64,000 nucleotides of DNA, from the NCBI RefSeq assembly GCF_003019035.1, contig NZ_CP027447.1; one strand, given 5' to 3'. The DNA is from Escherichia coli (lineage in GTDB: Bacteria > Pseudomonadota > Gammaproteobacteria > Enterobacterales > Enterobacteriaceae). Made by a program: the position numbers and the translations under genes. Under the pieces are notes generated by a model. That model worked only from the letters and a program-made list of their open reading frames with translations, was not told where the DNA came from and did not search any database. Numbering within the stretch: the first letter of the stretch is position 1; each line of letters starts with the position of its first letter. Positions 776-47,169 of this stretch are shown here, piece after piece.

Positions 776-2284
776 ATGGAATGGCAACAATTGCTTAACT
801 GCAACCGTCGGAAAGATAATCTAAAAAAAACCAGCATAGAATTTTTACATCCCCTTGCTAGCGGAAGACAAGAGATCGAGCGGGATTACGACCGATTACT
901 TTTTGCTGCGCCAACTCGTCGGCTTGCGGATAAAACACAAGTTTTCCCGTTAGATCAAAATGACAGTATACGGACGAGGCTGACTCATTCTCACGAAGTA
1001 GCAAACTTTGCTCGCGGAATAGGAATGAGACTCGCTTTCGAGATGAAGGAACACATCTTTGGCGAAATACCCACGGGGATTGTCGTTGAACGCGACGTTC
1101 CTGCTCTGTTAGCAGCGATCGGACTGGCACACGATCTCGGTAATCCACCATTTGGGCATCAAGGTGAAGCAGCGATGCGCGCATGGTTTAATAAAAATCT
1201 TCCAGGCCTTCTTGATAAAGAAGTAAACAGCGAAATATATAACGACTTTCTGCAATTTGATGGAAACTCACAAACCCTGCGCCTGGTTACCAAATTACAA
1301 ATTATTAACGATAACTTTGGTCTGAATCTGACCTATGCCACGCTGGCTGCACTGATCAAATATCCCCGAGCTTCATATTCATCGGACAAACATTGGAAAA
1401 AGCACGGTTTTTTCTATTCTGAGCATGAGGTTGTCATGGATGTCTGGCAACAAACGGGCCTTGGCGTACCAGGTAATGATGCCGGTTGCCGCCACCCATT
1501 TACCTGGATAATGGAAGCTTGCGACGATATTGCCTACTCTGTGCTGGACGCAGAAGATACCATCAAGAAAGGATTTGCCTCATACCAGGATTTGCGTGAT
1601 TTTTTGATGTCACAATCCGAGCCGAACGATGTAATTCAACATGTTATTGAAGCTGTAGAGGCCAAAAATGACGCCTGGAAAGAGCAAAGAAATGCACTTT
1701 CACCGGCGGAAATTAATGAACTCAGTATGCAAATGTTCAGAGTTTATGCCACCAGTGCATTGATTAATGCCGTAGTAGAAGCCTTTCGCGAACAATTACC
1801 CACGCTGATGCAGCGTGACTGCCCGTTCAAAGATTTAATCTCGCAAAGCAAAGGTCACGCTCTCTGCACTGCCCTGAAAATGTTCGACCGAACACGAGGC
1901 TACTTTCATCGTTCAGTCTTGCAACTGGAACTTAGGGGATCTAATTACATTACTAACTTGATGGATATGCTCTGGATTGGCATCCATGGACACAAAACAA
2001 AGAAAGAACGAGACGGAGAACGCGAGTCCGCGTCTACAGATAACCTTTTTGTTTCTCGTGAAGAATACCTGTCGGATACTCCCTTTGGTCGCTATGCTTA
2101 CGGGACAATCTCTGAAAATTATCGCCGTGTGTTTGAAGATCCCGCCAATACACTCCCTATTCTTTATAAAGAAGCGCAGTTGCTTACCGACGCAATCTCA
2201 GGCATGACGGATAGTTATTTAATGCGCCTTCACGATGAGCTAAAATCACTGTATGAATGTGGTCTCAAACACCCAACAGCTTGA
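776..2284 (+). CDS. Dgt-family HD-domain deoxynucleoside triphosphate triphosphohydrolase homologue (dGTPase-like), accessory copy
   Basis: 502-aa ORF with AAGG RBS about 9 nt upstream; motifs TRLTHSHEV, LAHDLGNPPFGH, TWIMEACDDIAYSVLDAED and C-terminal ISGMTDSY align with E. coli Dgt motifs as I recall them; local GC about 35-42%. Confidence 0.8.
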   Translation: MEWQQLLNCNRRKDNLKKTSIEFLHPLASGRQEIERDYDRLLFAAPTRRLADKTQVFPLDQNDSIRTRLTHSHEVANFARGIGMRLAFEMKEHIFGEIPTGIVVERDVPALLAAIGLAHDLGNPPFGHQGEAAMRAWFNKNLPGLLDKEVNSEIYNDFLQFDGNSQTLRLVTKLQIINDNFGLNLTYATLAALIKYPRASYSSDKHWKKHGFFYSEHEVVMDVWQQTGLGVPGNDAGCRHPFTWIMEACDDIAYSVLDAEDTIKKGFASYQDLRDFLMSQSEPNDVIQHVIEAVEAKNDAWKEQRNALSPAEINELSMQMFRVYATSALINAVVEAFREQLPTLMQRDCPFKDLISQSKGHALCTALKMFDRTRGYFHRSVLQLELRGSNYITNLMDMLWIGIHGHKTKKERDGERESASTDNLFVSREEYLSDTPFGRYAYGTISENYRRVFEDPANTLPILYKEAQLLTDAISGMTDSYLMRLHDELKSLYECGLKHPTA

Positions 2285-3005
2285 ACAGCGTATCGCCGAT
2301 TTTTTTACGCTTAGTGATGAGCATAAGAAAGCCAGAGTATTACTTGATACTCTGGCCTGTTCCTGTCCGGCCTGGATTTTTGGCGGGATGGTGCGTGACT
2401 TAGGCTTGTTTGGCGTCGAGGGATTCTCTTCAGACCTTGATATCGTCATCGGTCGCTCCCGTGAGGAACTCTTCCGGACATTGGCTGAACTGCCCGTCAA
2501 ACAACTGCGTTTTAATAAGTTCGGTGGGATCCGTTTTCGTTATCACGACTTCGAATTTGATATCTGGAACCTCAATGAGACATGGGCATTTCGGGAAAAA
2601 CTTATATTTTGTGAGGATGAATCAAGTCTGTTAAACACTACGCTGATGAGTTGGGATGCCGTGCTCTATGATCTACGTAGTGAAAAAATTATCAGTAAAG
2701 ATAATTATTTGACCGACTTAAATCGCAGACATCTTGAACTTGTTCTTCATACTAACCCCAATCCAAGCGGTTCGGTAACGAAAATTTTACGCACTATTTT
2801 TACTAAGCAGGTAAAGAGTTTAGGTCCGGAACTCTGTCATTTCTTGCACCATGAACTGACGAAAAAACGTTATGAAGTTTGGCATCATTACGATGTACTG
2901 CACTACCAGTCATCGTCATTTTCTCGTTCACAATTTAATGCGTTGATAAATTTACTGGCGCAACAATCACGCTTCGCTGATCTAAAATTATCAAATTACA
3001 AATAA
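2253..3005 (+). CDS. Pol-beta superfamily nucleotidyltransferase-like protein (tRNA-NT/poly(A) polymerase head-like motif), unknown function
   Basis: 250-aa ORF overlapping the upstream gene by 32 nt; motif WIFGGMVRDLGLFGVEGFSSDLDIVIG resembles the GGxVRD...DxD head motif of CCA-adding enzymes and PcnB; the rest has no recognisable body/tail domain. Confidence 0.65.
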   Translation: MNVVSNTQQLEQRIADFFTLSDEHKKARVLLDTLACSCPAWIFGGMVRDLGLFGVEGFSSDLDIVIGRSREELFRTLAELPVKQLRFNKFGGIRFRYHDFEFDIWNLNETWAFREKLIFCEDESSLLNTTLMSWDAVLYDLRSEKIISKDNYLTDLNRRHLELVLHTNPNPSGSVTKILRTIFTKQVKSLGPELCHFLHHELTKKRYEVWHHYDVLHYQSSSFSRSQFNALINLLAQQSRFADLKLSNYK

Positions 3006-3092: not shown

Positions 3093-3737
3093 TCAAAATC
3101 CAAGACTATCCAACAAATCGTCCACCTGATCCTGACTGGCTACCACACCGGCTTTGCTGGTATCGACCTGAGGTCCATTAAGCAAACTCTGGTTTTCACG
3201 TTTTGGACGCGACTCCTGTTCCGGGATGTTTTCCAACAGCACCATCAGCAACTGACGTTCGATCTCCTGAATGACATCCATCATCCGCTTAATGACCTGC
3301 CCGGTGAGATCCTGAAAATCCTGCGCCATCATGATTTCCAGCAGTTGCGCGTTAGTAAAGCTGGTATGCACGGGGACATCTACCAGAAATTGCCGCGTAT
3401 CTGTTACCAGTTCTCGGGCGTCGGCAAGGTCGATCGGATCGGCAAACCAGTCATCCCAACGTTGGGTTAACGCTTTTGCTGATTTCTCCATTTGATCCTG
3501 ATGCGGTTGTGACGCCTCAACACTGTTCAGCGCCCGCTCCGCAGCCTGGGCGGTCATCTGCACAACATAGTACAAACGATCGCGCGCATCGGGGATGGCT
3601 TCCGCCGCTTCGGCAATGGCCTGATCCAGCCCCAGCTCCCGCAAACTGTCGCGCAGCATACGCGTCAGGCTGCCGATGCGCGCAATGATATCGCCAGCTG
3701 AATGCTCGTCAGCAGGTTTGATTGATGGTTGCATCAT
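3093..3737 (-). CDS. cheZ: Chemotaxis phosphatase CheZ
   Basis: Translation [24 protein letters not shown]... to ...DDLLDSLGF matches E. coli CheZ; start taken at MMQP inside the longer track ORF. Confidence 0.95.
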
Positions 3738-5203: not shown

Positions 5204-6064
5204 TTAATCCTTACTTAGCGCATACACCGTCTGACCACGCAGCGTGAAGCGGCGCTCAAGGTGGCTAAAGTTTTCAGAGTGACCCGCAAACAGCAATCCG
5301 TCGGGTTTAAGGAGCGGAACAAAGCGGCGCAAAATCTCCTGCTGGGTAGTTTGATCGAAGTAGATCATGACGTTACGACAGAAGATCGCATCAAACGGCC
5401 CCGGCACGGTGTACTGTTTCGCCAGTAAATTCAGCGGGGCAAAATCAACATAGTTCGCCAGCTCCTGACGCACGCGTACCAGCCCTTCATGCGGTCCCGT
5501 CCCTCGCATGAAATACCGTTGCAGTTGCTGCGGCGTCAGGTTTTTCAACTCTTCATGGCGATAAATACCGCTTCTGGCTTTTTCCAGCACTTCGGTGTCG
5601 ATATCGCTGGCAAACACTTTCCAGCGTCCGGGCACGGTGCCCAATGTGTCAGCCAGCGTCATCGCAATGCTGTACGGCTCTTCGCCGGTCGAAGCCGCCG
5701 CGCTCCATACGCGATACTCGCCAGAACGGCGACGTGCGTGATCCGCGAGCAGAGGAAAATGATGCGCCTCACGGAAAAATGCCGTCAGATTCGTGGTCAG
5801 CGAATTGATAAACGCCTGCCACTCACCGCTGTGCTGATTAGATTCCAGCAAGTTCAGGTAATGACCGAAATCCGTCAGTCCCAGCGAACGCAAACGACGA
5901 ACCAGTCGGTTGTAAACCATGTCGCGTTTATGGTCGGCCAGGACGATCCCGGCTCGTTGATAGATCAATTGACTTATCCGCCGAAAATGCGCGTCGGAAA
6001 GCGCCAGGCGCTCGGTCATCTGTAACAATAAAGACGTTTGCCCACAGGGCAGAGATGAAGTCAT
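5204..6064 (-). CDS. cheR: Chemotaxis methyltransferase CheR
   Basis: 286-aa ORF matching CheR. Confidence 0.95.
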
Positions 6065-6082
6065 AGCGCCTTCTCAATCACT

Positions 6083-7684
6083 TCAGGATACCACTGGCGC
6101 AATTTGTAACTGCGCCGACTCATGTCGTGCTACTTCATGCTCTTCAAGGGTAAATACCGCCACGCGCGACGAAAGATGGTCGGCCTGATTCGCCAGTTGT
6201 TCTGTTGCCACCGCCGCTTCTTCTACCAGGGAGGCGTTCTGCTGTGTCACCTGATCCATCTGGCTGACAGCCTGTGCAACCTGCTCAATCCCCCGCCGTT
6301 GTTCTTCCGAGGCCGAAGCAATTTCTCCCATAATGTCGTTCACGCGGGTCACCGAACTGACAATATCAGTCATGGTCGCGGCGGCGTTATTCACCAGTTT
6401 CGAACCCTGCTGGACACGATTGACTGACTCTTCGATCAGCCCTTTGATCTCTTTTGCTGCCTGGGCGCTACGGCTGGCAAGATTGCGCACTTCACCTGCC
6501 ACTACCGCAAAACCACGCCCCTGCTCTCCGGCGCGAGCCGCTTCCACTGCCGCATTCAGGGCCAGAATATTGGTCTGGAAAGCAATGCCGTCGATAACGC
6601 TGATAATGTCGCCAATTTTTTGCGAGCTGGTGGCGATCTCCTGCATGGTGTGAGTCATGGTACTGACCTGAACACCGCCCGCCTGTGCCGTTGTCGCGGC
6701 ATTTTTTGCCAGTTCCGACGCCTGGCGCGCGTTATCGGCGTTTTGCCCTACCGTGGCGGTTAATTGCTCCATACTGGCGGCCGTTTGTGCCAGCGATGCC
6801 GCCTGCTGTTCGGTACGACTTGAGAGATCGTTATTGCCTGCGACAATCTCCGCGATACCAATGTGCATCTCCTGGCTTCCCTTACGCACATCACTTACCG
6901 TCCCACGCAAAGCCTGCTGCATGGTCTTCAGACTGGCAAAAATGGCGGTGATCTCATTGCGACCATACACCGCAATCGGACGCGCCAGATTACCCGCAGC
7001 AATGCTGTCAAAATGGCTACCGATAATGGCCAGTGGTTGAACAATCATCTTGCGCGTCCACCACAGCGCACTGCTGATGTAGATCGCCGCAACAATAATC
7101 ATGCTGATAAACACCAGCGCCGAAATCTGATAGTTACGCTGGCTTTGCGCACTGGCAGCTTCCAGCACATGGTTGATCTCCAGCTGCCAGGCCTCAAAGT
7201 TAACGTCAAACGCATTCTGTGATTCCTGCACCGGCGCAGTGAGGAAATCCGAAAGTTGATTACTTTCAAGCCAGGTCGCCTGATGTTCGAGATCGTTGTG
7301 CCAGCGGGCAAAACTTTTCTCCGTCTCTTTTTGCAACGCCCTGACGTGCTCGTTGCCCGCAGTCATCGCCATAAAACTTTTAAACAGCGTGGTGGATTGC
7401 GTCAGACTGGCGCGCGCCGTCGTCATCAACGTTTTAATGTCATCCGCCGGATAGCTAAGCGCCGTCAGAGTGCCCGCTTTGTTCAGCGCGGTACTGGCCT
7501 GTAACATTACCGCCCGAGTTTGCGCTAAAGCCGCACGTTGCTGATTGCTCTGCTCGACCTGATTCAGTCGTTGCACATCGTCGCGAAATGCCCAAAAAGA
7601 CATGCCGTTACTGCCAATCTGCAAGATCCCGCAGAGAATCAAAATTAAAAACAGCGTGGTCGAAATTCGAATACGATTAAACAT
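6083..7684 (-). CDS. tap: Methyl-accepting chemotaxis protein IV (dipeptide/pyrimidine receptor) Tap
   Basis: ORF MFNRIRISTTLFLILILCG... with conserved MCP signalling domain; start at second Met of track ORF. Confidence 0.93.
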   Translation of the reverse strand: MFNRIRISTTLFLILILCGILQIGSNGMSFWAFRDDVQRLNQVEQSNQQRAALAQTRAVMLQASTALNKAGTLTALSYPADDIKTLMTTARASLTQSTTLFKSFMAMTAGNEHVRALQKETEKSFARWHNDLEHQATWLESNQLSDFLTAPVQESQNAFDVNFEAWQLEINHVLEAASAQSQRNYQISALVFISMIIVAAIYISSALWWTRKMIVQPLAIIGSHFDSIAAGNLARPIAVYGRNEITAIFASLKTMQQALRGTVSDVRKGSQEMHIGIAEIVAGNNDLSSRTEQQAASLAQTAASMEQLTATVGQNADNARQASELAKNAATTAQAGGVQVSTMTHTMQEIATSSQKIGDIISVIDGIAFQTNILALNAAVEAARAGEQGRGFAVVAGEVRNLASRSAQAAKEIKGLIEESVNRVQQGSKLVNNAAATMTDIVSSVTRVNDIMGEIASASEEQRRGIEQVAQAVSQMDQVTQQNASLVEEAAVATEQLANQADHLSSRVAVFTLEEHEVARHESAQLQIAPVVS

Positions 7685-7729
7685 CAACGCTCCCCATCAG
7701 GCGGCAATGACCGCGTTAGTAAATACTCG

Positions 7730-9391
7730 TCAAAATGTTTCCCAGTTTGGATCTTGTTCAGCAATTCGCAGTCGTGGCTGTGCCGGTGGTTGCTCACTGG
7801 CAGGACGGGATGGTGTTTGCGGTTTATTGGTGAGTGGGCTGGCTGTCAGACGGAACGCGGAAACCGCTTGCGTTAAACGACTCGCCTGTTCTTCCAGCGC
7901 AGCTGCGGCGGCAGCTGATTCCTGCACCAGCGATGCGTTCTGTTGCGTGACGCGATCCATTTCCGAAACCGCCAATGCGACTTGATCGATGCCACGGCTC
8001 TGTTCATCCGATGCTGATGCAATCTCGCCCATAATGTCAGTCACGCGGGTGACAGCATTGACGATATTGTTCATTGTTTCCCCGGCGCTTTCGACCAGCA
8101 CCGAACCGGTATCAACGCGCGAGACGGAGTCTTCAATGAGGGCTTTGATCTCTTTTGCCGCCTGGGCGCTGCGACTGGCAAGATTACGCACTTCGCCCGC
8201 CACCACGGCAAAACCACGGCCTTGTTCACCCGCTCGCGCGGCTTCAACCGCGGCATTCAGCGCGAGGATATTAGTCTGGAAGGCAATACCGTCGATAACG
8301 CTGATAATGTCGGCAATTTTCTTCGAACTATCGGCGATCTCATGCATCGTTTTCACTACGCCATCCACCACTTTGCCGCCGTGCTGGGCGGTGTCGGAGG
8401 CACTTTGCGCCAGTTGCGAGGCCTGGCGGGCGTTATCGGCGTTTTGCTTCACTGTCGCGGTGAGCTGCTCCATGCTGGCGGCAGTTTCTTCCAGCGCGGA
8501 TGCCTGCTGTTCAGTACGGGAGGAAAGATCGGTGTTGCCCGCCGCAATTTCACGGGTACCGGCATAGATGGCATCTGAACCTTCGCGCACATGAGTGACG
8601 GTGTCAGTCAAAGAGCGTTGCATATGTGAAACACTCTGCGCCAGGTCGCCCATTTCACTGCGCCCGTCAATGGTCAGGGTATTCGCCAGGTTACCACCGG
8701 CAATTTCGCGAATATGCGCAATAATTTTTGCCAGCGGTGTAAGCAACATACGGCGAATGCCGTACCACGCCACCAGCAGAATCAATATCACCACCAGCGC
8801 GATAACCGCCAGTTGCCACTGGGCAAATCGGTAATCATCTGCGTTGTCAGTGACGATATCGCGATACAGTTTTTCACTGCTGAGGGCGTACTGAGCAAAC
8901 GCTTCGCCCATTGCATTTTGCATTCCCTGGGTTGGCTGAGCGAAATAAGCTCCAGTATTGCCATAATCAAGATAATCAATCAGTTCAGTTAACGCTGTGT
9001 GATAGTTTTTATATTTTTCATCAATATTACGACTGGTAGCGACCATTTCAGGTAACGGTGCCATGCTTTTGAATTTTTTATAATGCGTCGCTGCCTGGGC
9101 CAATGTTTTCCTGGCGCTATCGAGCAATTCAACTTTGGCATTACTTTGCTGATTGGATGAATCCATCATCATCCGCACCGCTGAACGACTCAGGTTAATG
9201 CGCGTTTGCAGCATTAAATCCCATGTAGACGTCAGCTCGCCCTGCTGTTCCCGTAATTGATTGGAAACCACAAAGCTCTTCTGGCTATGGTGAAGGGAAG
9301 AAAAAAACAGACTGCCGGAAATAAGCTGTAACAGTGCGAATACCCCCAGCACCATTACCAACAGCGTGACTACGCGGATACGGTTAATCAT
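7730..9391 (-). CDS. tar: Methyl-accepting chemotaxis protein II (aspartate receptor) Tar
   Basis: [25 protein letters not shown]... ending NWETF pentapeptide; start at MINRIR within track ORF. Confidence 0.93.
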
Positions 9392-9422
9392 AAGGCACCT
9401 TCCTGAAAACAAGTTGATCTCG

Positions 9423-9449
9423 TTATCGGCAAGGAAGGGGGAAACTTTA
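9423..9449 (-). promoter_or_regulatory. Sigma-28 (FliA) class 3 promoter upstream of tar
   Basis: Minus strand reads TAAAGTTT-N11-GCCGATAA, an exact match to the sigma-28 consensus. Confidence 0.7.
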
Positions 9450-9476
9450 TTGCTGATGCCACCCGCCGCGAAATTG

Positions 9477-9507
9477 AAATAAAAAACCCGATGCGCAGAT
9501 CATCGGG
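9477..9507 (-). terminator. Intrinsic terminator downstream of cheW
   Basis: Hairpin CCCGATG...CATCGGG followed by a T-run on the minus strand. Confidence 0.6.
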
Positions 9508-9535
9508 TTCATTTCAATTGAGGAAATCGGGAGAA

Positions 9536-10039
9536 TTACGCCACTTCTGACGCCGCGCTATCTAACAGCGCCATCTCTTCGCTGTTCAGCAGTTTTTCGA
9601 TGTTCACCAGAATCAACATCCGGTCGCCCAGTGCGCCCAGTCCAGTGAGATATTCGGTTGAAAGCGTCACGGCAAATTCCGGTGCCGGACGAATTTGCTC
9701 CGCCGTCAATGAAAGCACGTCTGAAACGCCGTCAACCACGATGCCGACCACCCGCTGTCCGAGATTCAGGACGATAACTACCGTGTTGTCGTTATAGTCC
9801 ACATCCACCTGGCTGAACTTAATTCGTAAGTCAACAATCGGCACAATAACGCCGCGCAGATTCGTGACGCCTTTGATAAACGCTGGCGTGTTCGCAATCC
9901 GTGTCACCTGATCGTAGCCACGGATCTCCTGCACTTTCAGAATATCAATACCGTACTCTTCATCACCAAGGGTAAATACCAGAAATTCCTGGCCTGACGG
10001 CTCGCTGGCCAGCTTTGTTACATTCGTCATACCGGTCAT
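9536..10039 (-). CDS. cheW: Chemotaxis coupling protein CheW
   Basis: 167-aa [45 protein letters not shown]... matches CheW. Confidence 0.96.
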
Positions 10040-39544: not shown

Positions 39545-40960
39545 ATGGCTAGTATTTCAACGCTTGGGGTTGGGTCGGGGCTGGACTTAAGCAGCATCCT
39601 TGACAGTCTGGAAGCGGCAGAAAAATCTACCCTGACGCCGATATCAAAACAGCAAAGCTCTTATACCGCGAAACTGAGCGCCTACGGGACGCTGAAAAGC
39701 GCACTAGAGAGCTTCCAGACAGCCAACACAGCACTGAACAAAGCCGATTTATTTACCGCCACCTCAACTACCAGCAGTTCATCGGCTTTCAGCGCCACCA
39801 CCACGGGCAGCGCGATTGCCGGGAAATACACCATTAGCGTTAGCCAACTGGCGCAGGCACAGACGCTGACCACCCAAAATAGTCAAAAAGACAGTAAAGC
39901 TGCCATCGCCACCAGCGATAGCGTACTAACCATCCAGCAAGGTGGCGGTAAAGATCCGGTCACGATTGATATCAGCGCGGCTAACTCGTCACTTTCCGGC
40001 ATTCGCGATGCCATTAACAACGCCAAAGCTGGTGTCAGCGCCAGTATCATCCATGTGGGTAACGGCGAGTATCGTCTGTCCATCACTGCTAACGATACGG
40101 GCAGCGATAACGCTATGAAACTTAGCGTCAGCGGCGACAGCGCCCTGGAAAGTTTTATGGGTTACAACGGAACGTCGGGTGATAGCAGCAATGGCATGAT
40201 TGAAAGCGTCACTGCGCAAAACGCCAAACTGACAGTCAATAACGTTGAGATTGAAAACAGCAGTAACACTATCAGCGACGCGCTGGAAGATATCACCCTC
40301 AACCTGAATGACGTCACCACCGGTAATCAGACACTGACCATCAGTAAAGACACATCCAAAGCTGAAAATGCGGTTAAAGCGTGGGTGGATGCCTATAACT
40401 CATTGCAGGATACGTTCAGCAGCTTAACCAAATACACCGCTGTCGATGCCGGAGCAGAGAGTCAGGACTCCAGCAATGGCGCATTACTCGGTGACTCCAC
40501 ACTGCGTACCATCCAGACTCAGCTTAAAACCTTGCTCGCCAATACTCACAGCAGTTCAAACTATAAAACGCTGGCACAGATTGGCATTACCAGCGATGCC
40601 AGTACCGGCAAGCTGGAAATCGCGACCGACAAACTGCAAACGGCGCTAAAAAAAGATGCCGCTGGCATCAGTGAAATGTTTATAGGTGACGGTAAAAGTA
40701 CAGGGGTAACCACCGGCATTAGTAGCAACCTAACCAGTTGGCTCTCTTCCACCGGGATAATCCAGGCCGCAAAAGATGGCGTCAGCAAAACGCTGAATAA
40801 TTTGACCGACCAGTACAACGCAGCCAGTGAGCGTATCGATACCTTAATGACGCGCTATAAAGCCCAGTTCACCCAATTAGATGTGTTAATGAACTCGCTT
40901 AACTCCACCAGTAGCTATCTGACACAGCAATTCGACACATCAAATAGCAACTCGAAATAA
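39545..40960 (+). CDS. fliD: Flagellar filament cap protein FliD
   Basis: 471-aa ORF MASISTLGVGSGLDLSSILDSLEAAEKSTLTPIS...; conserved termini, divergent from K-12 FliD internally. Confidence 0.94.
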   Translation: MASISTLGVGSGLDLSSILDSLEAAEKSTLTPISKQQSSYTAKLSAYGTLKSALESFQTANTALNKADLFTATSTTSSSSAFSATTTGSAIAGKYTISVSQLAQAQTLTTQNSQKDSKAAIATSDSVLTIQQGGGKDPVTIDISAANSSLSGIRDAINNAKAGVSASIIHVGNGEYRLSITANDTGSDNAMKLSVSGDSALESFMGYNGTSGDSSNGMIESVTAQNAKLTVNNVEIENSSNTISDALEDITLNLNDVTTGNQTLTISKDTSKAENAVKAWVDAYNSLQDTFSSLTKYTAVDAGAESQDSSNGALLGDSTLRTIQTQLKTLLANTHSSSNYKTLAQIGITSDASTGKLEIATDKLQTALKKDAAGISEMFIGDGKSTGVTTGISSNLTSWLSSTGIIQAAKDGVSKTLNNLTDQYNAASERIDTLMTRYKAQFTQLDVLMNSLNSTSSYLTQQFDTSNSNSK

Positions 40961-40975
40961 TCTTCAGGAGAAACT

Positions 40976-41386
40976 ATGTACGCGGCAAAAGGCACCCAGG
41001 CCTATGCACAAATTGGCGTCGAAAGCGCCGTAATGAGCGCCAGCCAACAGCAGCTGGTCACCATGCTATTTGATGGAGTGCTGAGCGCACTGGTTAGAGC
41101 GCGCCTGTTTATGCAGGACAACAATCAGCAAGGCAAAGGCGTCTCTTTATCAAAAGCGATCAACATCATTGAGAACGGGCTGCGGGTGAGTCTTGATGAA
41201 GAGAGCAAAGACGAATTAACCCAAAACTTGATTGCTCTTTATAGCTATATGGTCAGGCGTTTGCTGCAAGCCAATTTACGCAACGATGTCTCCGCAGTCG
41301 AAGAAGTGGAAGCATTAATGCGCAATATTGCCGATGCCTGGAAAGAGTCTTTACTCTCCCCTTCTTTGATTCAGGACCCAGTCTGA
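40976..41386 (+). CDS. fliS: Flagellin-specific chaperone FliS
   Basis: 136-aa [37 protein letters not shown]... matches FliS. Confidence 0.95.
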
Positions 41387-41751
41387 TGAACCACGCACCG
41401 CATTTGTATTTCGCCTGGCAACAACTCGTCGAAAAAAGCCAGCTCATGTTACGCCTGGCAACGGAAGAACAATGGGACGAACTCATCGCCAGCGAAATGG
41501 CGTATGTGAATGCGGTGCAGGAGATTGCACATCTGACTGAAGAGATTGACCCGTCCATCACGATGCAGGAGCAGCTCCGCCCGATGCTGCGCCTGATTCT
41601 CGACAACGAAAGCAAGGTAAAGCAGTTATTACAGATTCGGATGGATGAACTGGCGAAACTGGTCGGTCAGTCATCGGTGCAAAAATCGGTGTTAAGTGCC
41701 TATGGCGATCAGGGCGGCTTTGTGCTGGCTCCGCAAGATAACTTCTCGTGA
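41386..41751 (+). CDS. fliT: FliD chaperone / anti-FlhDC factor FliT
   Basis: 121-aa [37 protein letters not shown]... matches FliT. Confidence 0.94.
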
Positions 41752-41828
41752 ATCTTAACGAGCTAATGGCTCGCGAATAATCCGATTACGGCTACGCTTC
41801 TAATGTTCCCCTTGAATGGAGTCGAAGA

Positions 41829-43316
41829 ATGCGTAATCCCACGCTGTTACAATGCTTTCACTGGTATTACCCGGAAGGAGGTAAGCTCTGGCCTGAACTG
41901 GCAGAGCGCGCCGACGGTTTTAATGATATTGGTATCAATATGGTCTGGTTACCGCCAGCCTATAAAGGCGCATCGGGCGGGTACTCGGTCGGCTACGACT
42001 CCTATGATTTATTTGATTTAGGCGAGTTTGATCAGAAAGGCAGCATCCCTACTAAATATGGCGATAAAGCACAACTGCTGGCCGCCATTGACGCCCTGAA
42101 ACGTAATGACATTGCGGTGCTACTGGACGTGGTAGTCAACCACAAAATGGGGGCGGATGAAAAAGAAGCTATTCGCGTGCAACGTGTAAATGCTGATGAC
42201 CGTACGCAAATTGACGAAGAAATCATTGAGTGCGAAGGCTGGACGCGTTACACCTTCCCCGCCCGTGCCGGGCAATACTCGCAGTTTATCTGGGATTTCA
42301 AATGTTTTAGCGGTATCGACCATATCGAAAATCCTGATGAAGATGGCATATTTAAAATTGTTAACGACTACACCGGCGAAGGCTGGAACGATCAGGTTGA
42401 TGATGAACTCGGTAATTTCGATTATCTGATGGGTGAGAATATCGATTTCCGCAATCATGCCGTGACGGAAGAGATTAAATACTGGGCGCGCTGGGTGATG
42501 GAACAAACGCAATGCGACGGTTTTCGTCTTGATGCGGTCAAACATATTCCGGCGTGGTTTTATAAAGAGTGGATCGAACACGTACAAGAAGTTGCACCAA
42601 AGCCGCTGTTTATTGTGGCTGAATACTGGTCGCATGAAGTCGATAAGCTGCAAACGTATATTGATCAGGTGGAAGGCAAAACCATGCTGTTTGATGCGCC
42701 GCTGCAGATGAAATTCCATGAAGCATCGCGCATGGGGCGCGACTACGACATGACGCAGATTTTCACGGGTACATTAGTGGAAGCCGATCCTTTCCACGCC
42801 GTGACCCTCGTCGCCAATCACGATACCCAACCGTTGCAAGCTCTCGAAGCGCCGGTCGAACCGTGGTTTAAACCGCTGGCGTATGCTCTAATTTTGTTGC
42901 GGGAAAATGGCGTTCCTTCGGTGTTCTATCCGGACCTCTACGGTGCGCATTACGAAGATGTCGGTGGTGACGGGCAAACCTATCCGATAGATATGCCAAT
43001 AATCGAACAGCTTGATGAGTTAATTCTCGCCCGTCAGCGTTTCGCCCACGGTGTACAGACGTTATTTTTCGACCATCCGAACTGCATTGCCTTTAGCCGC
43101 AGTGGCACTGACGAATATCCCGGCTGCGTGGTGGTCATGTCGAACGGGGATGATGGCGAAAAAACCATTCATCTGGGAGAGAATTACGGCAATAAAACCT
43201 GGCGTGATTTTCTGGGGAACCGGCAAGAGAGCGTAGTGACCGACGAAAACGGCGAAGCAACCTTCTTTTGCAACGGCGGCAGCGTCAGCGTGTGGGTTAT
43301 CGAAGAGGTGATTTAA
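41829..43316 (+). CDS. amyA: Cytoplasmic alpha-amylase AmyA
   Basis: 495-aa [50 protein letters not shown]... GH13 family. Confidence 0.95.
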
Positions 43317-43349
43317 ATTCATCCCCGGCGGCAAGCCGGGGAGATTTCA

Positions 43350-43763
43350 TTACGGCAGTGGCGTCGGTAACGGCGCTTTATCCAGCGCGGCGGCACACTC
43401 TGCCGTCGGGCGATCCACACGCTCCATCGTCATACCATCGTACTCAATGGTGTTACCGTCACGCTCAACCTCGTACAGCTCACGTTTTACGGTAACGTTA
43501 GTGAGATCATCAGACATCAATGTCAACTTACCCGGCACAGCAATCACCCGCTGCCACTGACGGCAATCCAGAGTATCGCCCTCTTTAGTGACAATCAGGC
43601 TGCCTATCGCTTCCGGACTGACCAGCGCACGTTGCGGCCCTTTGGTCTGCCAGTAGCCCGCCAGCCAGTCCGGCGCGGGGGTTTTCACGACATTGTTATA
43701 GTTTTCGACTTCGGCACAGCCCGCCAGCAACATGAGCGCGCCTGCAATTGCGAGTTTTTTCAT
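43350..43763 (-). CDS. yedD: Lipoprotein YedD
   Basis: ORF MKKLAIAGALMLLAGCAEVENYNNVVK... with lipobox. Confidence 0.9.
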   Translation of the reverse strand: MKKLAIAGALMLLAGCAEVENYNNVVKTPAPDWLAGYWQTKGPQRALVSPEAIGSLIVTKEGDTLDCRQWQRVIAVPGKLTLMSDDLTNVTVKRELYEVERDGNTIEYDGMTMERVDRPTAECAAALDKAPLPTPLP

Positions 43764-43949
43764 CATTCGTCCTGCATGAGAAGAAAAGAGGATTGTGGCA
43801 TTAAAGCCCTGATGTCGCCAGCCTTTCCAGGTTCAGAGAGAAATTTGATCTAACTATTATTTTTGTGAATTATTACCCCGAAAATAAATGTGCATGATGT
43901 ATGATTCGCGACTCTTGTTTCAAACCTTCTGAGTTCAGAGGCTACATTC

Positions 43950-45155
43950 ATGTCATGGCAGCAATTCAAACACGCCTGGTTGATTAAATTCTGGGCACCC
44001 ATCCCTGCGGTCATCGCGGCGGGTATTCTCTCCACTTACTATTTTGGCATTACTGGCACCTTTTGGGCTGTCACGGGTGAATTTACCCGTTGGGGCGGTC
44101 AGCTCCTGCAGCTGTTTGGCGTCCATGCTGAAGAGTGGGGTTATTTTAAAATTATCCATCTGGAAGGATCGCCATTAACCCGCATCGACGGGATGATGAT
44201 CCTCGGTATGTTTGGCGGCTGCTTTGCCGCAGCGCTGTGGGCCAACAATGTCAAACTACGCATGCCGCGCAGCCGTATCCGCATTATGCAGGCCATCATT
44301 GGCGGCATTATCGCCGGTTTTGGCGCGCGTCTGGCAATGGGCTGTAACCTGGCGGCGTTCTTTACCGGCATTCCTCAGTTCTCGCTGCATGCCTGGTTCT
44401 TTGCCATCGCCACTGCCATTGGTTCATGGTTTGGCGCGCGCTTTACCCTGCTGCCCATCTTCCGTATTCCCGTGAAAATGCAGAAAGTTTCTGCCGCCTC
44501 GCCGCTGACGCAAAAACCGGATCAGGCGCGGCGTCGTTTTCGTCTCGGGATGCTGGTCTTTTTCGGCATGCTGGGCTGGGCGCTGCTGACGGCGATGAAC
44601 CAGCCCAAACTGGGGCTGGCAATGCTGTTTGGCGTCGGCTTTGGTTTACTGATTGAACGTGCGCAAATCTGCTTTACTTCGGCGTTCCGCGATATGTGGA
44701 TCACCGGACGTACCCATATGGCGAAAGCAATCATTATCGGTATGGCGGTAAGTGCCATCGGGATCTTCAGTTACGTACAGTTAGGCGTTGAACCCAAAAT
44801 CATGTGGGCAGGACCAAACGCGGTAATTGGTGGTTTACTGTTTGGTTTTGGCATCGTGCTGGCAGGCGGCTGCGAAACCGGCTGGATGTACCGCGCGGTA
44901 GAAGGCCAGGTGCACTACTGGTGGGTCGGTCTGGGCAACGTGATCGGCTCAACGATTCTGGCGTATTACTGGGATGATTTCGCTCCGGCGCTGGCCACCG
45001 ACTGGGACAAAATCAACCTGCTAAAAACCTTTGGTCCGATGGGTGGCCTGCTGGTGACATATTTGCTGTTGTTTGCAGCTCTAATGTTGATTATCGGCTG
45101 GGAAAAACGCTTCTTCCGCCGTGCGGCACCGCAGACTGCTAAGGAGATCGCATGA
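43950..45155 (+). CDS. yedE: Putative selenium/sulfur-compound transporter YedE
   Basis: 401-aa polytopic membrane ORF at the yedE position. Confidence 0.9.
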   Translation: MSWQQFKHAWLIKFWAPIPAVIAAGILSTYYFGITGTFWAVTGEFTRWGGQLLQLFGVHAEEWGYFKIIHLEGSPLTRIDGMMILGMFGGCFAAALWANNVKLRMPRSRIRIMQAIIGGIIAGFGARLAMGCNLAAFFTGIPQFSLHAWFFAIATAIGSWFGARFTLLPIFRIPVKMQKVSAASPLTQKPDQARRRFRLGMLVFFGMLGWALLTAMNQPKLGLAMLFGVGFGLLIERAQICFTSAFRDMWITGRTHMAKAIIIGMAVSAIGIFSYVQLGVEPKIMWAGPNAVIGGLLFGFGIVLAGGCETGWMYRAVEGQVHYWWVGLGNVIGSTILAYYWDDFAPALATDWDKINLLKTFGPMGGLLVTYLLLFAALMLIIGWEKRFFRRAAPQTAKEIA

Positions 45156-45385
45156 AAAATATCGTTCCTGATTACCGTCTTGATATGGTGGGTGAACCCT
45201 GCCCTTATCCGGCAGTCGCCACCCTTGAGGCGATGCCGCAGTTAAAAAAAGGTGAGATCCTGGAAGTGGTGAGCGACTGTCCGCAGTCGATCAATAATAT
45301 TCCACTGGATGCGCGTAATCACGGCTATACGGTGCTGGATATTCAGCAAGACGGGCCGACCATTCGTTATTTAATTCAGAAGTAA
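45152..45385 (+). CDS. yedF: TusA-like sulfurtransferase family protein YedF
   Basis: 77-aa ORF with CPYP motif (MVGEPCPYPAVA); 4-nt overlap with yedE. Confidence 0.9.
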   Translation: MKNIVPDYRLDMVGEPCPYPAVATLEAMPQLKKGEILEVVSDCPQSINNIPLDARNHGYTVLDIQQDGPTIRYLIQK

Positions 45386-45493
45386 TCCCTCATTCCCGCT
45401 GTGGCCCACAGCGGGAACATCGTTACCTCTGTATCACATAGATTTTACCCGCCCCCTCTCCTATTCTTTTCAGTATGATCTCAGGAGGTTTCT

Positions 45494-46162
45494 ATGTGTG
45501 GACGCTTTGCCCAATCCCAAACGCGTGAAGATTACCTTGCGCTTCTCGCGGAAGATATTGAACGCGATATTCCCTATGATCCCGAACCCATTGGCAGATA
45601 CAACGTCGCGCCGGGAACCAAAGTCCTTCTGCTCAGTGAACGTGATGAACACCTTCATTTGGATCCGGTTTTCTGGGGATATGCTCCCGGATGGTGGGAT
45701 AAACCGCCGCTGATTAATGCCCGCGTAGAAACTGCCGCAACCAGTCGCATGTTTAAGCCGCTCTGGCAACATGGTCGGGCAATCTGTTTTGCCGATGGCT
45801 GGTTTGAGTGGAAAAAAGAAGGCGACAAAAAACAGCCTTATTTTATCTATCGCGCTGACGGACAACCTGTTTTTATGGCCGCGATAGGTAGCACACCGTT
45901 TGAGCGTGGTGACGAAGCCGAAGGATTTTTGATCGTCACTGCGGCGGCAGATCAAGGTCTGGTAGATATTCATAACCGCCGCCCGCTGGTACTGTCGCCA
46001 GAAGCTGCACGGGAATGGATGCGGCAAGATATTGGCGGTAAAGAAGCCTCTGAAATCGCTACCAGTGGCTGTGTGCCAGCAAACCAGTTCACCTGGCACC
46101 CGGTATCGCGCGCGGTGGGTAATGTCAAAAACCAGGGCGCGGAGTTAATTCAACCTGTTTGA
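45494..46162 (+). CDS. yedK: SOS-response associated peptidase family protein YedK (abasic-site DNA-protein crosslink protein)
   Basis: 222-aa ORF beginning MCGRFAQSQTREDY... (SRAP N-terminal Cys2). Confidence 0.9.
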   Translation: MCGRFAQSQTREDYLALLAEDIERDIPYDPEPIGRYNVAPGTKVLLLSERDEHLHLDPVFWGYAPGWWDKPPLINARVETAATSRMFKPLWQHGRAICFADGWFEWKKEGDKKQPYFIYRADGQPVFMAAIGSTPFERGDEAEGFLIVTAAADQGLVDIHNRRPLVLSPEAAREWMRQDIGGKEASEIATSGCVPANQFTWHPVSRAVGNVKNQGAELIQPV

Positions 46163-46272
46163 TAAGCCTGGAGATTATTGATCAACAATACTGCGTCATA
46201 AGAAATCTCTATTAGACAAAGATTTCAGTACCTGTTGGCATATTGCAAAAATAATACCAATACGGAATCGTC

Positions 46273-46752
46273 ATGTTCACGATTAAAACAGATGATCTCA
46301 CCCATCCAGCAGTGCAAGCATTAGTGGCTTACCATATTTCCGGCATGCTGCAGCAGTCTCCCCCCGAAAGCAGTCATGCTTTAGATGTGCAAAAATTACG
46401 TAACCCGACAGTGACATTCTGGTCAGTATGGGAAGGCGAACAACTCGCAGGAATTGGTGCGCTGAAGTTGCTGGATGATAAACATGGCGAGCTGAAATCA
46501 ATGCGTACCGCGCCTAATTATTTACGTCGTGGTGTCGCCAGTCTGATTTTACGCCACATTTTGCAGGTCGCCCATGACAGATGCCTTCATCGCCTGAGCT
46601 TAGAAACGGGTACACAGGCTGGATTTACGGCCTGCCATCAACTTTATTTGAAGCATGGTTTCGTTGATTGCGAACCGTTTGCTGATTATCAACTTGATCC
46701 ACACAGTCGATTTTTGTCATTGACGCTATGCGAAAATAATGAATTGCCATGA
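46273..46752 (+). CDS. yedL: GNAT-family N-acetyltransferase YedL
   Basis: 159-aa ORF at the yedL position. Confidence 0.85.
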   Translation: MFTIKTDDLTHPAVQALVAYHISGMLQQSPPESSHALDVQKLRNPTVTFWSVWEGEQLAGIGALKLLDDKHGELKSMRTAPNYLRRGVASLILRHILQVAHDRCLHRLSLETGTQAGFTACHQLYLKHGFVDCEPFADYQLDPHSRFLSLTLCENNELP

Positions 46753-47169
46753 GCCAGACGCAGCACATTCTTGCATTCGACGAGCTGCGCCTTTATTTAT
46801 TATCAGCCGCAAATGTCTTGTCCTTAGACGCTCTTTCCACATGCGCCACAAGAAACCTCTATTCCAGTGACACAATTATGCCTGATTATTTCCCTAGCCC
46901 GGAATATGAATAAAAACATCAAATAAGATGAAATTATCAAAATATTAATGTTGCGTCTGTGGTCGTAACAACAACCGACCTGGTGATGCGTGTTAAAGGA
47001 GACACTCTGATGTTCAGGGGGGTTATCACGTATACAGATCGTGGATGGCAGAAAACTTTCAGAATCAGGTTTCCATTTTAAACCAGAAATTGAGTGAGTT
47101 TGCCCCATCAATGCCCCACGCTGTGAGTTTGGATGTCATTAAACAAGCACAATCAACACGTAACACAAC

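Follow-up and report, generated by a model that had tools for sequence, protein, structure and literature searches.

Can the adjacent chemoreceptor genes tar and tap of Escherichia coli recombine with each other in nature, and where does the sequence that they share come from? In E. coli, the two genes are adjacent co-oriented paralogues in the cluster cheW-tar-tap-cheR-cheB-cheY-cheZ. The window, that is, the whole 64,000-nt stretch of E. coli DNA analysed here, contains the order cheW-tar-tap-cheR, all on one strand, according to its open reading frames and the RefSeq annotation of identical DNA (Table 1). A preliminary description had proposed that long, near-identical direct repeats in tap and tar can recombine, which would delete one gene or create a tar-tap hybrid.

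Tar and Tap share the same architecture. Each consists of a TarH, a HAMP, and an MCPsignal domain (Pfam PF02203, PF00672, and PF00015, with scores above the gathering thresholds), and the TarH domain of both is a four-helix-bundle sensor. The translated C-terminus of Tar (...QDPNWETF) carries the NWETF pentapeptide and that of Tap (...LQIAPVVS) does not, consistent with the high- versus low-abundance receptor class. In the list of open reading frames, tap starts one codon earlier, at a TTG at position 7687. The tar-tap region of K-12 is 98.5% identical to the window in nucleotides, with the same genes in the order cheW-tar-tap-cheR and the same perfect runs of 24, 18, and 16 nt; nothing material differs. 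Positions 1-27782 of the window are 99.9-100% identical to strain FDAARGOS_497, which contains a 14.5-kb island missing from the window, and the region 36-60 kb is 99.9-100% identical to strain SCU-301.

Homology between the C-terminal coding halves of K-12 tar and tap was reportedly described by Krikos et al. in Cell in 1983. In the window, a codon-aware alignment defines a shared block in which 461 of 630 positions (73.2%) are identical, ungapped and in register. The block encodes the methylation helices and the hairpin tip of the signalling domain. A repeat finder recovers it as two direct repeats with a spacing of 1701 nt (D1, 300 nt at 70%; D2, 185 nt at 74%). Identity rises to 80% over 225 nt in the core (6434-6658 and 8135-8359) and is 39-53% beyond the block. 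The two strings quoted in the preliminary description are exact and lie exactly 1701 nt apart. The block is therefore real and its spacing of about 1.7 kb, precisely 1701 nt over 630 ungapped nucleotides, is as described, but an identity of 73-86% is not near-identity. Uninterrupted identity is confined to one run of 24 nt, followed by runs of 18 and 16 nt; the remaining in-register perfect runs are at most 11 nt. The repeats have the same orientation and are in register, and the offset of 1701 nt is a multiple of three, so the product of an exchange between them is in frame.

Table 1 Positions in the window of the two genes, the shared block, its perfect runs, and the microhomologies of the common tap deletion
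Feature	Position	Strand	Details
tar, methyl-accepting chemotaxis protein II	7730..9391	(-)	553 aa; ORF, RefSeq annotation of identical locus, Pfam
tap, methyl-accepting chemotaxis protein IV	6083..7684	(-)	533 aa; ORF, RefSeq annotation, Pfam
Block, tap copy	6209..6838	(-)	630 nt; codon-aware alignment and repeat finder
Block, tar copy	7910..8539	(-)	630 nt; offset +1701 nt = 567 codons
Quoted tap string	6449..6526		Exact 78-mer in the window
Quoted tar string	8150..8227		Exact 78-mer; 67/78 = 85.9% match to tap string
Longest perfect run, 24 nt, tap copy	6588..6611		CGACATTATCAGCGTTATCGACGG (gene strand); crossover of ET474 and PEC389 hybrids
24-nt run, tar copy	8289..8312		tar nt 1080-1103
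Second-longest run, 18 nt, tap copy	6729..6746		GCAAAACGCCGATAACGC; crossover of ETEC4088 hybrid
18-nt run, tar copy	8430..8447		tar nt 945-962
16-nt run	tap 6442..6457, tar 8143-8158		Alignment
Left microhomology of tap deletion	6180..6191		TCGgCCTGATTC
Right microhomology of tap deletion	7554..7565		TCGaCCTGATTC

A single in-frame Tar(N)-Tap(C) gene of 535 aa replaces the tandem pair in exactly three of 5,385 locus-bearing complete E. coli genomes (about 0.06% of complete genomes). In each of the three strains, ET474, PEC389, and ETEC4088, the order is cheW-[1608-nt MCP gene]-cheR, and the locus is shorter than the tandem pair by exactly 1701 nt. The count was obtained with a junction query from which the block had been removed, at a coverage of at least 80%. 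A first synthetic query (the 3' part of tap and the 5' part of tar, joined at the 24-nt run) was dropped; it returned 1,112 genomes at the same coverage and was non-diagnostic because it joined pieces of normal and tap-deleted loci, although the three hybrids still ranked top.

For mapping of the junctions, the tar and tap genes of K-12 served as proxies for the parental genes. In the ET474 and PEC389 genes, 621 of the 623 informative sites through nt 1079 match tar, and every one of the 182 from nt 1104 onwards matches tap, which places the crossover within the 24-nt run. In the ETEC4088 gene, all 579 informative sites through nt 944 match tar and 225 of the 226 from nt 963 onwards match tap, which places the crossover within the 18-nt run. 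No natural crossover in the 16-nt run was found in the screen of complete genomes. ET474 and PEC389 are identical across 6.5 kb. The two hybrid types are separated by 37 differences in their flanks, indicating that they arose in independent events. All three hybrids lie in complete chromosome assemblies (China, Korea, and Belgium), and the hybrid isolates come from frog and pig faeces. In addition, exact copies of the two hybrid proteins were recovered from 71 and 28 more contigs (NCBI, ENA, and Logan), with gene context and nucleotide junctions unchanged. These sequence data establish that the hybrids exist and where their junctions lie. The exchange has occurred in natural strains two or more times, using the two longest perfect runs, and its products persist at low frequency. 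Assuming uniform crossovers over the 630-nt block, the probability that both fall in the two longest runs by chance is (44/630)^2 = ~0.005; the association of crossovers with long runs is based on the two independent events resolved. The reciprocal product, a three-gene array with a tap5'-tar3' junction, was found in none of the genomes at a junction coverage of at least 80%. Literature phrase searches returned no report of natural tar-tap fusions, hybrids, or deletions. The proposal that the repeats recombine is thus borne out by tar5'-tap3' genes with crossovers in the 24- and 18-nt runs. The preliminary description had taken runs shorter than about 20-25 nt as too short to support recombination; the longest run is borderline by this measure, which the population data override.

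We consider it highly probable that the block is conserved by selection on the protein and that unequal exchange at its perfect runs yields rare in-frame hybrids. An unequal exchange beginning in a perfect run would delete exactly one gene-length. Its product would fuse the sensor, the HAMP domain, and the first methylation helix of Tar to the hairpin tip and the C-terminus of Tap.

The enzymology of the exchange can only be inferred. RecBCD/RecA exchange usually needs about 23-27 nt of identity, and mismatch repair normally blocks exchange in homology that is about 25% diverged. Shen and Huang reportedly described in 1986 the dependence of E. coli homologous recombination on a minimal identity segment (MEPS), and RecA-independent deletion between short direct repeats is said to have been documented by Bi and Liu in 1994 and by Lovett and co-workers. 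As in MEPS-type recombination, the crossovers at this locus sit in the longest uninterrupted runs of a diverged repeat pair, but at 18 nt one of the junctions falls short of the classical MEPS. The data do not establish homologous recombination in its strict sense: the 24-nt run is at the lower edge of the length range, one event took place at 18 nt, and the flanks are about 25% diverged.

It is quite possible, though we lean slightly the other way, that RecA-independent exchange (replication slippage, template switching, or sister-strand misalignment at short direct repeats) made the hybrids, which would then be grouped with the microhomology deletions elsewhere in tar and tap and not with homologous recombination proper. 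The 18-nt junction and the divergence of the nearby DNA are in accordance with this, as are the other short-repeat deletions at the locus (1,374 nt in tap and 222 nt in tar) and the absence of the reciprocal duplication from the genome junction screen. However, RecA-independent deletion drops steeply with the distance between repeats, and the repeats are 1.7 kb apart. Moreover, the events used the two longest runs and none of the many 8-11-nt matches, which fits a requirement for longer identity, and instability of a three-MCP array, or selection against it, would also leave no reciprocal product. Sequence does not reveal whether the exchange depended on RecA and a minimal identity segment or was RecA-independent slippage.

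The deletions that bear on this comparison are of two kinds. The tap block is missing in about 1,090 of 5,426 genomes (about 20%), CFT073 included. The common form of tap loss is a 1,374-nt deletion that lies wholly within tap, at a microhomology of 8-12 nt; part of tap survives as a short remnant, and tar is intact. On this ground, the reading of some 1,100 partially covered genomes as tar-tap recombinants was rejected. The common tap loss is a separate event that does not derive from tar-tap exchange. The second kind, present in three genomes, removes 222 nt of tar in frame, at a 19-nt repeat that is imperfect. Loss of tap in phylogroup B2 and uropathogenic E. coli is attributed to Lane et al. 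2006 and Borziak et al. 2013 in later articles (PMC12623472 and PMC3559539). As in the hybrids, this locus ends up with one chemoreceptor gene fewer, but unlike them the loss is an intragenic tap deletion between TCGgCCTGATTC and TCGaCCTGATTC.

The comparison of the two genes with their proteins demonstrates that the block is the nucleotide-level counterpart of the conserved cytoplasmic MCP signalling domain and that its nucleotide identity follows from protein conservation. Protein identity between Tar and Tap reaches up to 100% at the hairpin tip, but identity at third positions is just 37-57% in the core where the amino acids are 100% identical. Purifying selection on the protein, together with common codon preferences, holds the DNA at 73-86% identity and leaves a few perfect runs of 16-24 nt. 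When synonymous codons were shuffled with both proteins fixed (2000 shuffles), the expected identity was 66.5 +/- 1.3% and the expected longest run about 15 nt, compared with 73.2% and 24 nt observed. None of the 2000 shuffles attained the observed identity, and 1.1% attained a 24-nt run, indicating that tar-tap identity exceeds chance given the proteins.

This excess raises the possibility that gene conversion or concerted evolution actively homogenises the block and keeps its identity high. In accordance, both block identity (0.73 versus 0.66) and the same-codon fraction at identical residues (0.53 versus 0.38-0.39) are above the synonymous-shuffle expectation. Nevertheless, we regard this reading as very improbable. 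The unlinked pair tar-tsr has an equal excess (identity 0.775 versus 0.705 by shuffle) and the same same-codon fraction of 0.53, and in K-12 tar is nearer to tsr than to tap in the block (0.77 versus 0.73). The tandem copies are therefore not closer at synonymous sites than the unlinked paralogues in the comparison of tar-tap with tar-tsr. Perfect runs in unlinked pairs are 28 nt (tar-tsr), 29 nt (tap-aer), and 22 nt (tar-trg), compared with 24 nt in tar-tap, and the low third-position identity of the core also argues against homogenisation. In the population, the contribution of the three hybrids aside, no tar or tap block at 90-95% identity was found in about 5,400 genomes by an identity-band screen that would miss tracts below about 50 nt. 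In particular, the tar block was never 90-95% identical to the query in these genomes (lowest normal value sampled, 97.9%), and no value was found between the normal alleles (lowest tap value sampled, 97.5%) and the deletion or hybrid alleles. Concerted evolution was rejected on two grounds, the codon comparisons with the unlinked genes tsr, trg, and aer and the spread of block identities in the population; nothing indicates homogenisation between the tandem copies, and the reading is largely refuted. The extra synonymous similarity is family-wide and not specific to the tandem pair.

That the single-gene hybrids are two similar tandem genes merged during assembly, as can happen to tandem paralogues in short-read assemblies, is hardly conceivable, since 73-80% identity is far too low for this, the three chromosomes are complete and come from three countries, ET474 and PEC389 agree throughout the compared region, the exact proteins recur on the further contigs with the same junctions, and the junctions are clean and in frame, without a mosaic of tar-type and tap-type sites.

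Tar-Tap hybrids have precedents in the laboratory. The hybrids of Slocum and colleagues from 1987 reportedly arose in vivo by recombination between homologous 3' regions. Like the hybrids found here, laboratory Tar-Tap hybrids join the N-terminal sensing part of Tar in register to the C-terminal signalling part of Tap, whereas the present ones occur in natural isolates, in lineages seen on about 100 contigs. Slocum, Halden & Parkinson 1987 (J Bacteriol 169:2938) and Weerasuriya, Schneider & Manson 1998 (J Bacteriol 180:914) are the studies cited for functional chimeras between receptors that are closely related. The paralogy and the laboratory tar-tap hybrids were already known, and the natural hybrids are a small addition.

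The hybrid receptor is predicted to retain aspartate and maltose sensing and to lose the Tap sensor for dipeptides and pyrimidines. It would also lose the NWETF tether for CheR and CheB, and adaptation would therefore depend on Tsr. It seems unlikely to us that the Tar(N)-Tap(C) fusions are a recurrently arising, selectively retained receptor variant and not neutral accidents. Two independent origins, intact frames, and about 100 contigs from several continents are compatible with selective retention but do not show it. If it were true, a highly expressed aspartate and maltose sensor without NWETF, combined with lost dipeptide and pyrimidine taxis, would alter chemotactic behaviour in certain animal-gut lineages. 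PGAP names the 535-aa fusion plain 'tar', and name-based chemoreceptor surveys would therefore overlook the fusion as well as the loss of Tap in these lineages. For annotation, the shared block is an ordinary, long-known outcome of paralogy that needs no new explanation. The value of the locus is modest: it provides a clean natural example of recombination between diverged tandem paralogues, in which the sole tar-tap fusions in about 5,400 genomes join at the two longest runs of a 73%-identical repeat.

The window is from E. coli, and its tar and tap genes lie side by side in a chemotaxis cluster. Over 5900-9600, the sequence has 100% identity to strain FDAARGOS_497 and 98.5% to K-12 MG1655. 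Tar and Tap, both methyl-accepting chemotaxis proteins (MCPs), share the domain architecture TarH, HAMP, and MCPsignal. According to the translations, the C-terminal NWETF is present in Tar and absent from Tap.

Window positions of the chemotaxis genes and of the longest perfect tap/tar identity runs.
Feature	Position	Strand	Basis
cheW	9536-10039	minus	ORFs and annotation
tar (553 aa)	7730-9391	minus	ORFs and annotation
tap (533 aa)	6083-7684	minus	ORFs and annotation
cheR, cheB, cheY	same cluster as tar and tap	minus	ORFs and annotation
24-nt perfect run	tap 6588-6611 / tar 8289-8312		
18-nt perfect run	tap 6729-6746 / tar 8430-8447		
16-nt perfect run	tap 6442-6457 / tar 8143-8158		

Elsewhere in the window, two genes occupy 776-3005 (plus strand) between flhB (1-539) and cheZ (3093-3737). 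The first encodes a 502-aa HD-domain protein, annotated 'dgt', with a match to the anti-phage 'dGTPase' model of PADLOC (E = 9e-71), and the second is an overlapping ORF of 250 aa with no match in Pfam or PADLOC. In K-12, cheZ adjoins flhB. Together, the two genes resemble a small defence cassette that has inserted into the flagellar region. FDAARGOS_497 is 99.9% identical to window 1-27782, and at ~27658-27782 (yecA to tRNA-Leu/Cys/Gly) it carries a 14.5-kb island absent from the window, with a DUF262 protein, an M48 peptidase, type I restriction-modification hsdR/S/M, a cold-shock-domain protein, a YecA-family protein, and IS3. The position is a variable defence-island site beside the tRNA cluster. 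Around fliC-fliD (~38000-47000) the identity to FDAARGOS_497 is just 91-93%, but strain SCU-301 matches window 36-60 kb at 100%; therefore, the allele of the flagellin region differs from that of the strain matching the first 27 kb. This suggests that the DNA around fliC has a mosaic or recombinant history.

A protein-guided codon alignment places the tap and tar signalling domains in one ungapped, in-register block (tap 6209-6838, tar 7910-8539) with an identity of 461/630 (73.2%), including a 225-nt core at 80%. Outside the block, the identity is 39% in the sensor and transmembrane part and 40% in the C-terminal tails. A repeat finder, which is independent of the alignment, returns direct repeats of 300 and 185 nt with 70-74% identity and a spacing of 1701. 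Apart from the three runs in the table, perfect runs are at most 11 nt. The preliminary description had reported extended near-identical blocks ~1.7 kb apart. The two 78-mers quoted there are exact in the window (6449-6526 and 8150-8227), lie 1701 nt apart, and agree at 67/78 positions (85.9%). The blocks thus exist where they were placed, but with this overall identity and runs of no more than 24 nt, both "extended" and "near-identical" are too strong. The block is real and rightly located, yet ordinary and already known; homology of the tar and tap 3' halves is textbook knowledge.

Protein constraint accounts for much of this similarity, but not all. In the hairpin tip, where the proteins are 97-100% identical, just 37-57% of third codon positions are identical. 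When synonymous codons are shuffled within each gene with both proteins fixed (2000 shuffles), the block is expected to show 66.5 +/- 1.3% identity and a longest run of ~15 nt. The observed identity is matched in 0/2000 shuffles and the 24-nt run is attained in 1.1%, indicating that synonymous similarity remains beyond protein constraint. The tandem arrangement is not the source of this excess. In K-12, tar has 77% identity to the unlinked tsr and 73% to the adjacent tap, both pairs show an identical-codon fraction of 0.53 at identical residues, and the perfect runs of unlinked pairs equal or exceed those of the tandem pair (tar-tsr, 28 nt; tap-aer, 29 nt; tar-trg, 22 nt). In tap-less genomes, megablast aligns the tap block best with aer (83.7% over 123 nt). 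Across all pairs of K-12 tar, tap, tsr, trg, and aer, 0.44-0.53 of conserved residues use identical synonymous codons, and codon-usage shuffles predict a lower 0.37-0.41; this family-wide excess may stem from codon preference at specific sites or from residual ancestry. No conversion tract between tar and tap is visible in ~5,400 complete genomes, and in none of them does the tar block fall in the 90-95% identity band; the lowest normal values sampled are 97.9% for the tar block and 97.5% for the tap block. A homogenised repeat is rejected, since unlinked pairs are as similar and no conversion tracts are visible in these genomes. Taken together, the codon statistics and the lack of visible tracts identify the block as a passive imprint, at the nucleotide level, of a protein domain under strong conservation.

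In a whole-locus search, the full tandem pair is present in 4,321/5,426 genomes, and ~1,100 show a coverage of only 63%. The latter are not tar-tap recombinants, as the deletion is wholly inside tap and tar is intact. It removes 1,374 nt between TCGgCCTGATTC (6180-6191) and TCGaCCTGATTC (7554-7565), leaves a short tap remnant, and is carried by ~1,090 of the 5,426 complete genomes, including CFT073. Because the span is identical in every sampled tap-deleted genome, the deletion looks like a single ancestral microhomology event without tar-tap exchange. It agrees with the Tap loss published for B2 and uropathogenic strains (Lane 2006, Borziak 2013, cited in PMC12623472, PMC3559539).

To find fusions irrespective of crossover position, a block-free junction query was used, in which the cheR 5' end, the spacer between cheR and tap, and the tap 3' tail precede the stretch of tar that lies immediately upstream of the block; the two pieces can be joined only by in-register fusion, with the crossover anywhere in the block. 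Exactly 3/5,385 locus-bearing genomes are positive: ET474 (frog faeces, China), PEC389 (pig faeces, Korea), and ETEC4088 (pig faeces, Belgium). These rare natural hybrid alleles bear out the prediction of recombination between the repeats. In all three, one intact 1,608-nt gene (535 aa), labelled 'tar' by PGAP, lies between cheW and cheR. Junctions were mapped at informative sites with K-12 tar and tap as stand-in parents. The hybrid gene shared by ET474 and PEC389 is tar-type at 621/623 sites to nt 1079 and tap-type at 182/182 from nt 1104, placing the crossover within the 24-nt run. The ETEC4088 gene is tar-type at 579/579 sites to nt 944 and tap-type at 225/226 from nt 963, placing it within the 18-nt run. 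ET474 and PEC389 do not differ over 6.5 kb, and 37 flanking sites separate ETEC4088 from them; therefore, at least two independent fusion events occurred. An assembly artefact is ruled out, because the exact hybrid proteins are present on 71 and 28 contigs of a large protein collection, always in the context motB-cheA-cheW-hybrid-cheR-cheB-cheY-cheZ and with unchanged nucleotide junctions. The reciprocal tap5'-tar3' junction, the mark of a three-gene array, was found in 0 genomes searched. In GCA_907172595.1, which carries the 24-nt-run hybrid, a 1-nt indel splits cheR (L012 4627-5486) into ORFs of 210 and 89 aa; the indel may reflect an error in sequencing or a genuine cheR frameshift alongside the NWETF-less receptor.

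The repeats are co-oriented with an offset divisible by three, and hybrid formation removes exactly 1701 nt. The fusions would arise by unequal exchange involving two sister chromatids or a single chromatid, probably nucleated where tar/tap identity is uninterrupted. Both junctions fall in the two longest perfect runs, for which the probability is ~0.005 by our own arithmetic if crossovers were uniform over the 630-nt block. The process may be RecA/RecBCD recombination that uses a minimal identity segment, or slippage independent of RecA. Slippage is favoured by the junction at a run of only 18 nt, by the ~25% divergence of the flanks, and by other short-repeat deletions at the locus. These are the tap deletion at a microhomology and a second one of 222 nt (74 codons), in frame, within the tar signalling domain of three genomes (strains 472, 673, and PI24). 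The latter is flanked by an imperfect 19-nt direct repeat, CCACGGCtcTGTTCAtCCG / CCACGGCctTGTTCAcCCG (7992-8010 and 8214-8232), and yields a 479-aa Tar without part of the hairpin region, named 'Tar ligand binding domain-containing protein' by PGAP. A process that depends on homology is favoured by the 1.7-kb distance between the repeats and by the use of the longest runs despite many 8-11-nt matches.

Functional Tar-Tap chimeras have been described (Slocum et al. 1987; Weerasuriya et al. 1998). The 1987 hybrids of Slocum and colleagues reportedly arose through recombination in vivo between the homologous regions. Natural tar-tap fusions are not mentioned in the literature searched, which includes few of the pertinent older journals. 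What is new is modest and lies in the population data: three hybrid genomes out of 5,385, with two independent junctions at the 24-nt and 18-nt runs and neither conversion nor a reciprocal product. The hybrid protein takes its sensor, HAMP domain, and first methylation helix from Tar, and its hairpin tip, second methylation helix, and tail from Tap; with this tail, it lacks NWETF. From established knowledge on high- and low-abundance receptors, the hybrid is predicted to retain aspartate and maltose sensing and to lose Tap-mediated taxis, with adaptation requiring help from Tsr.
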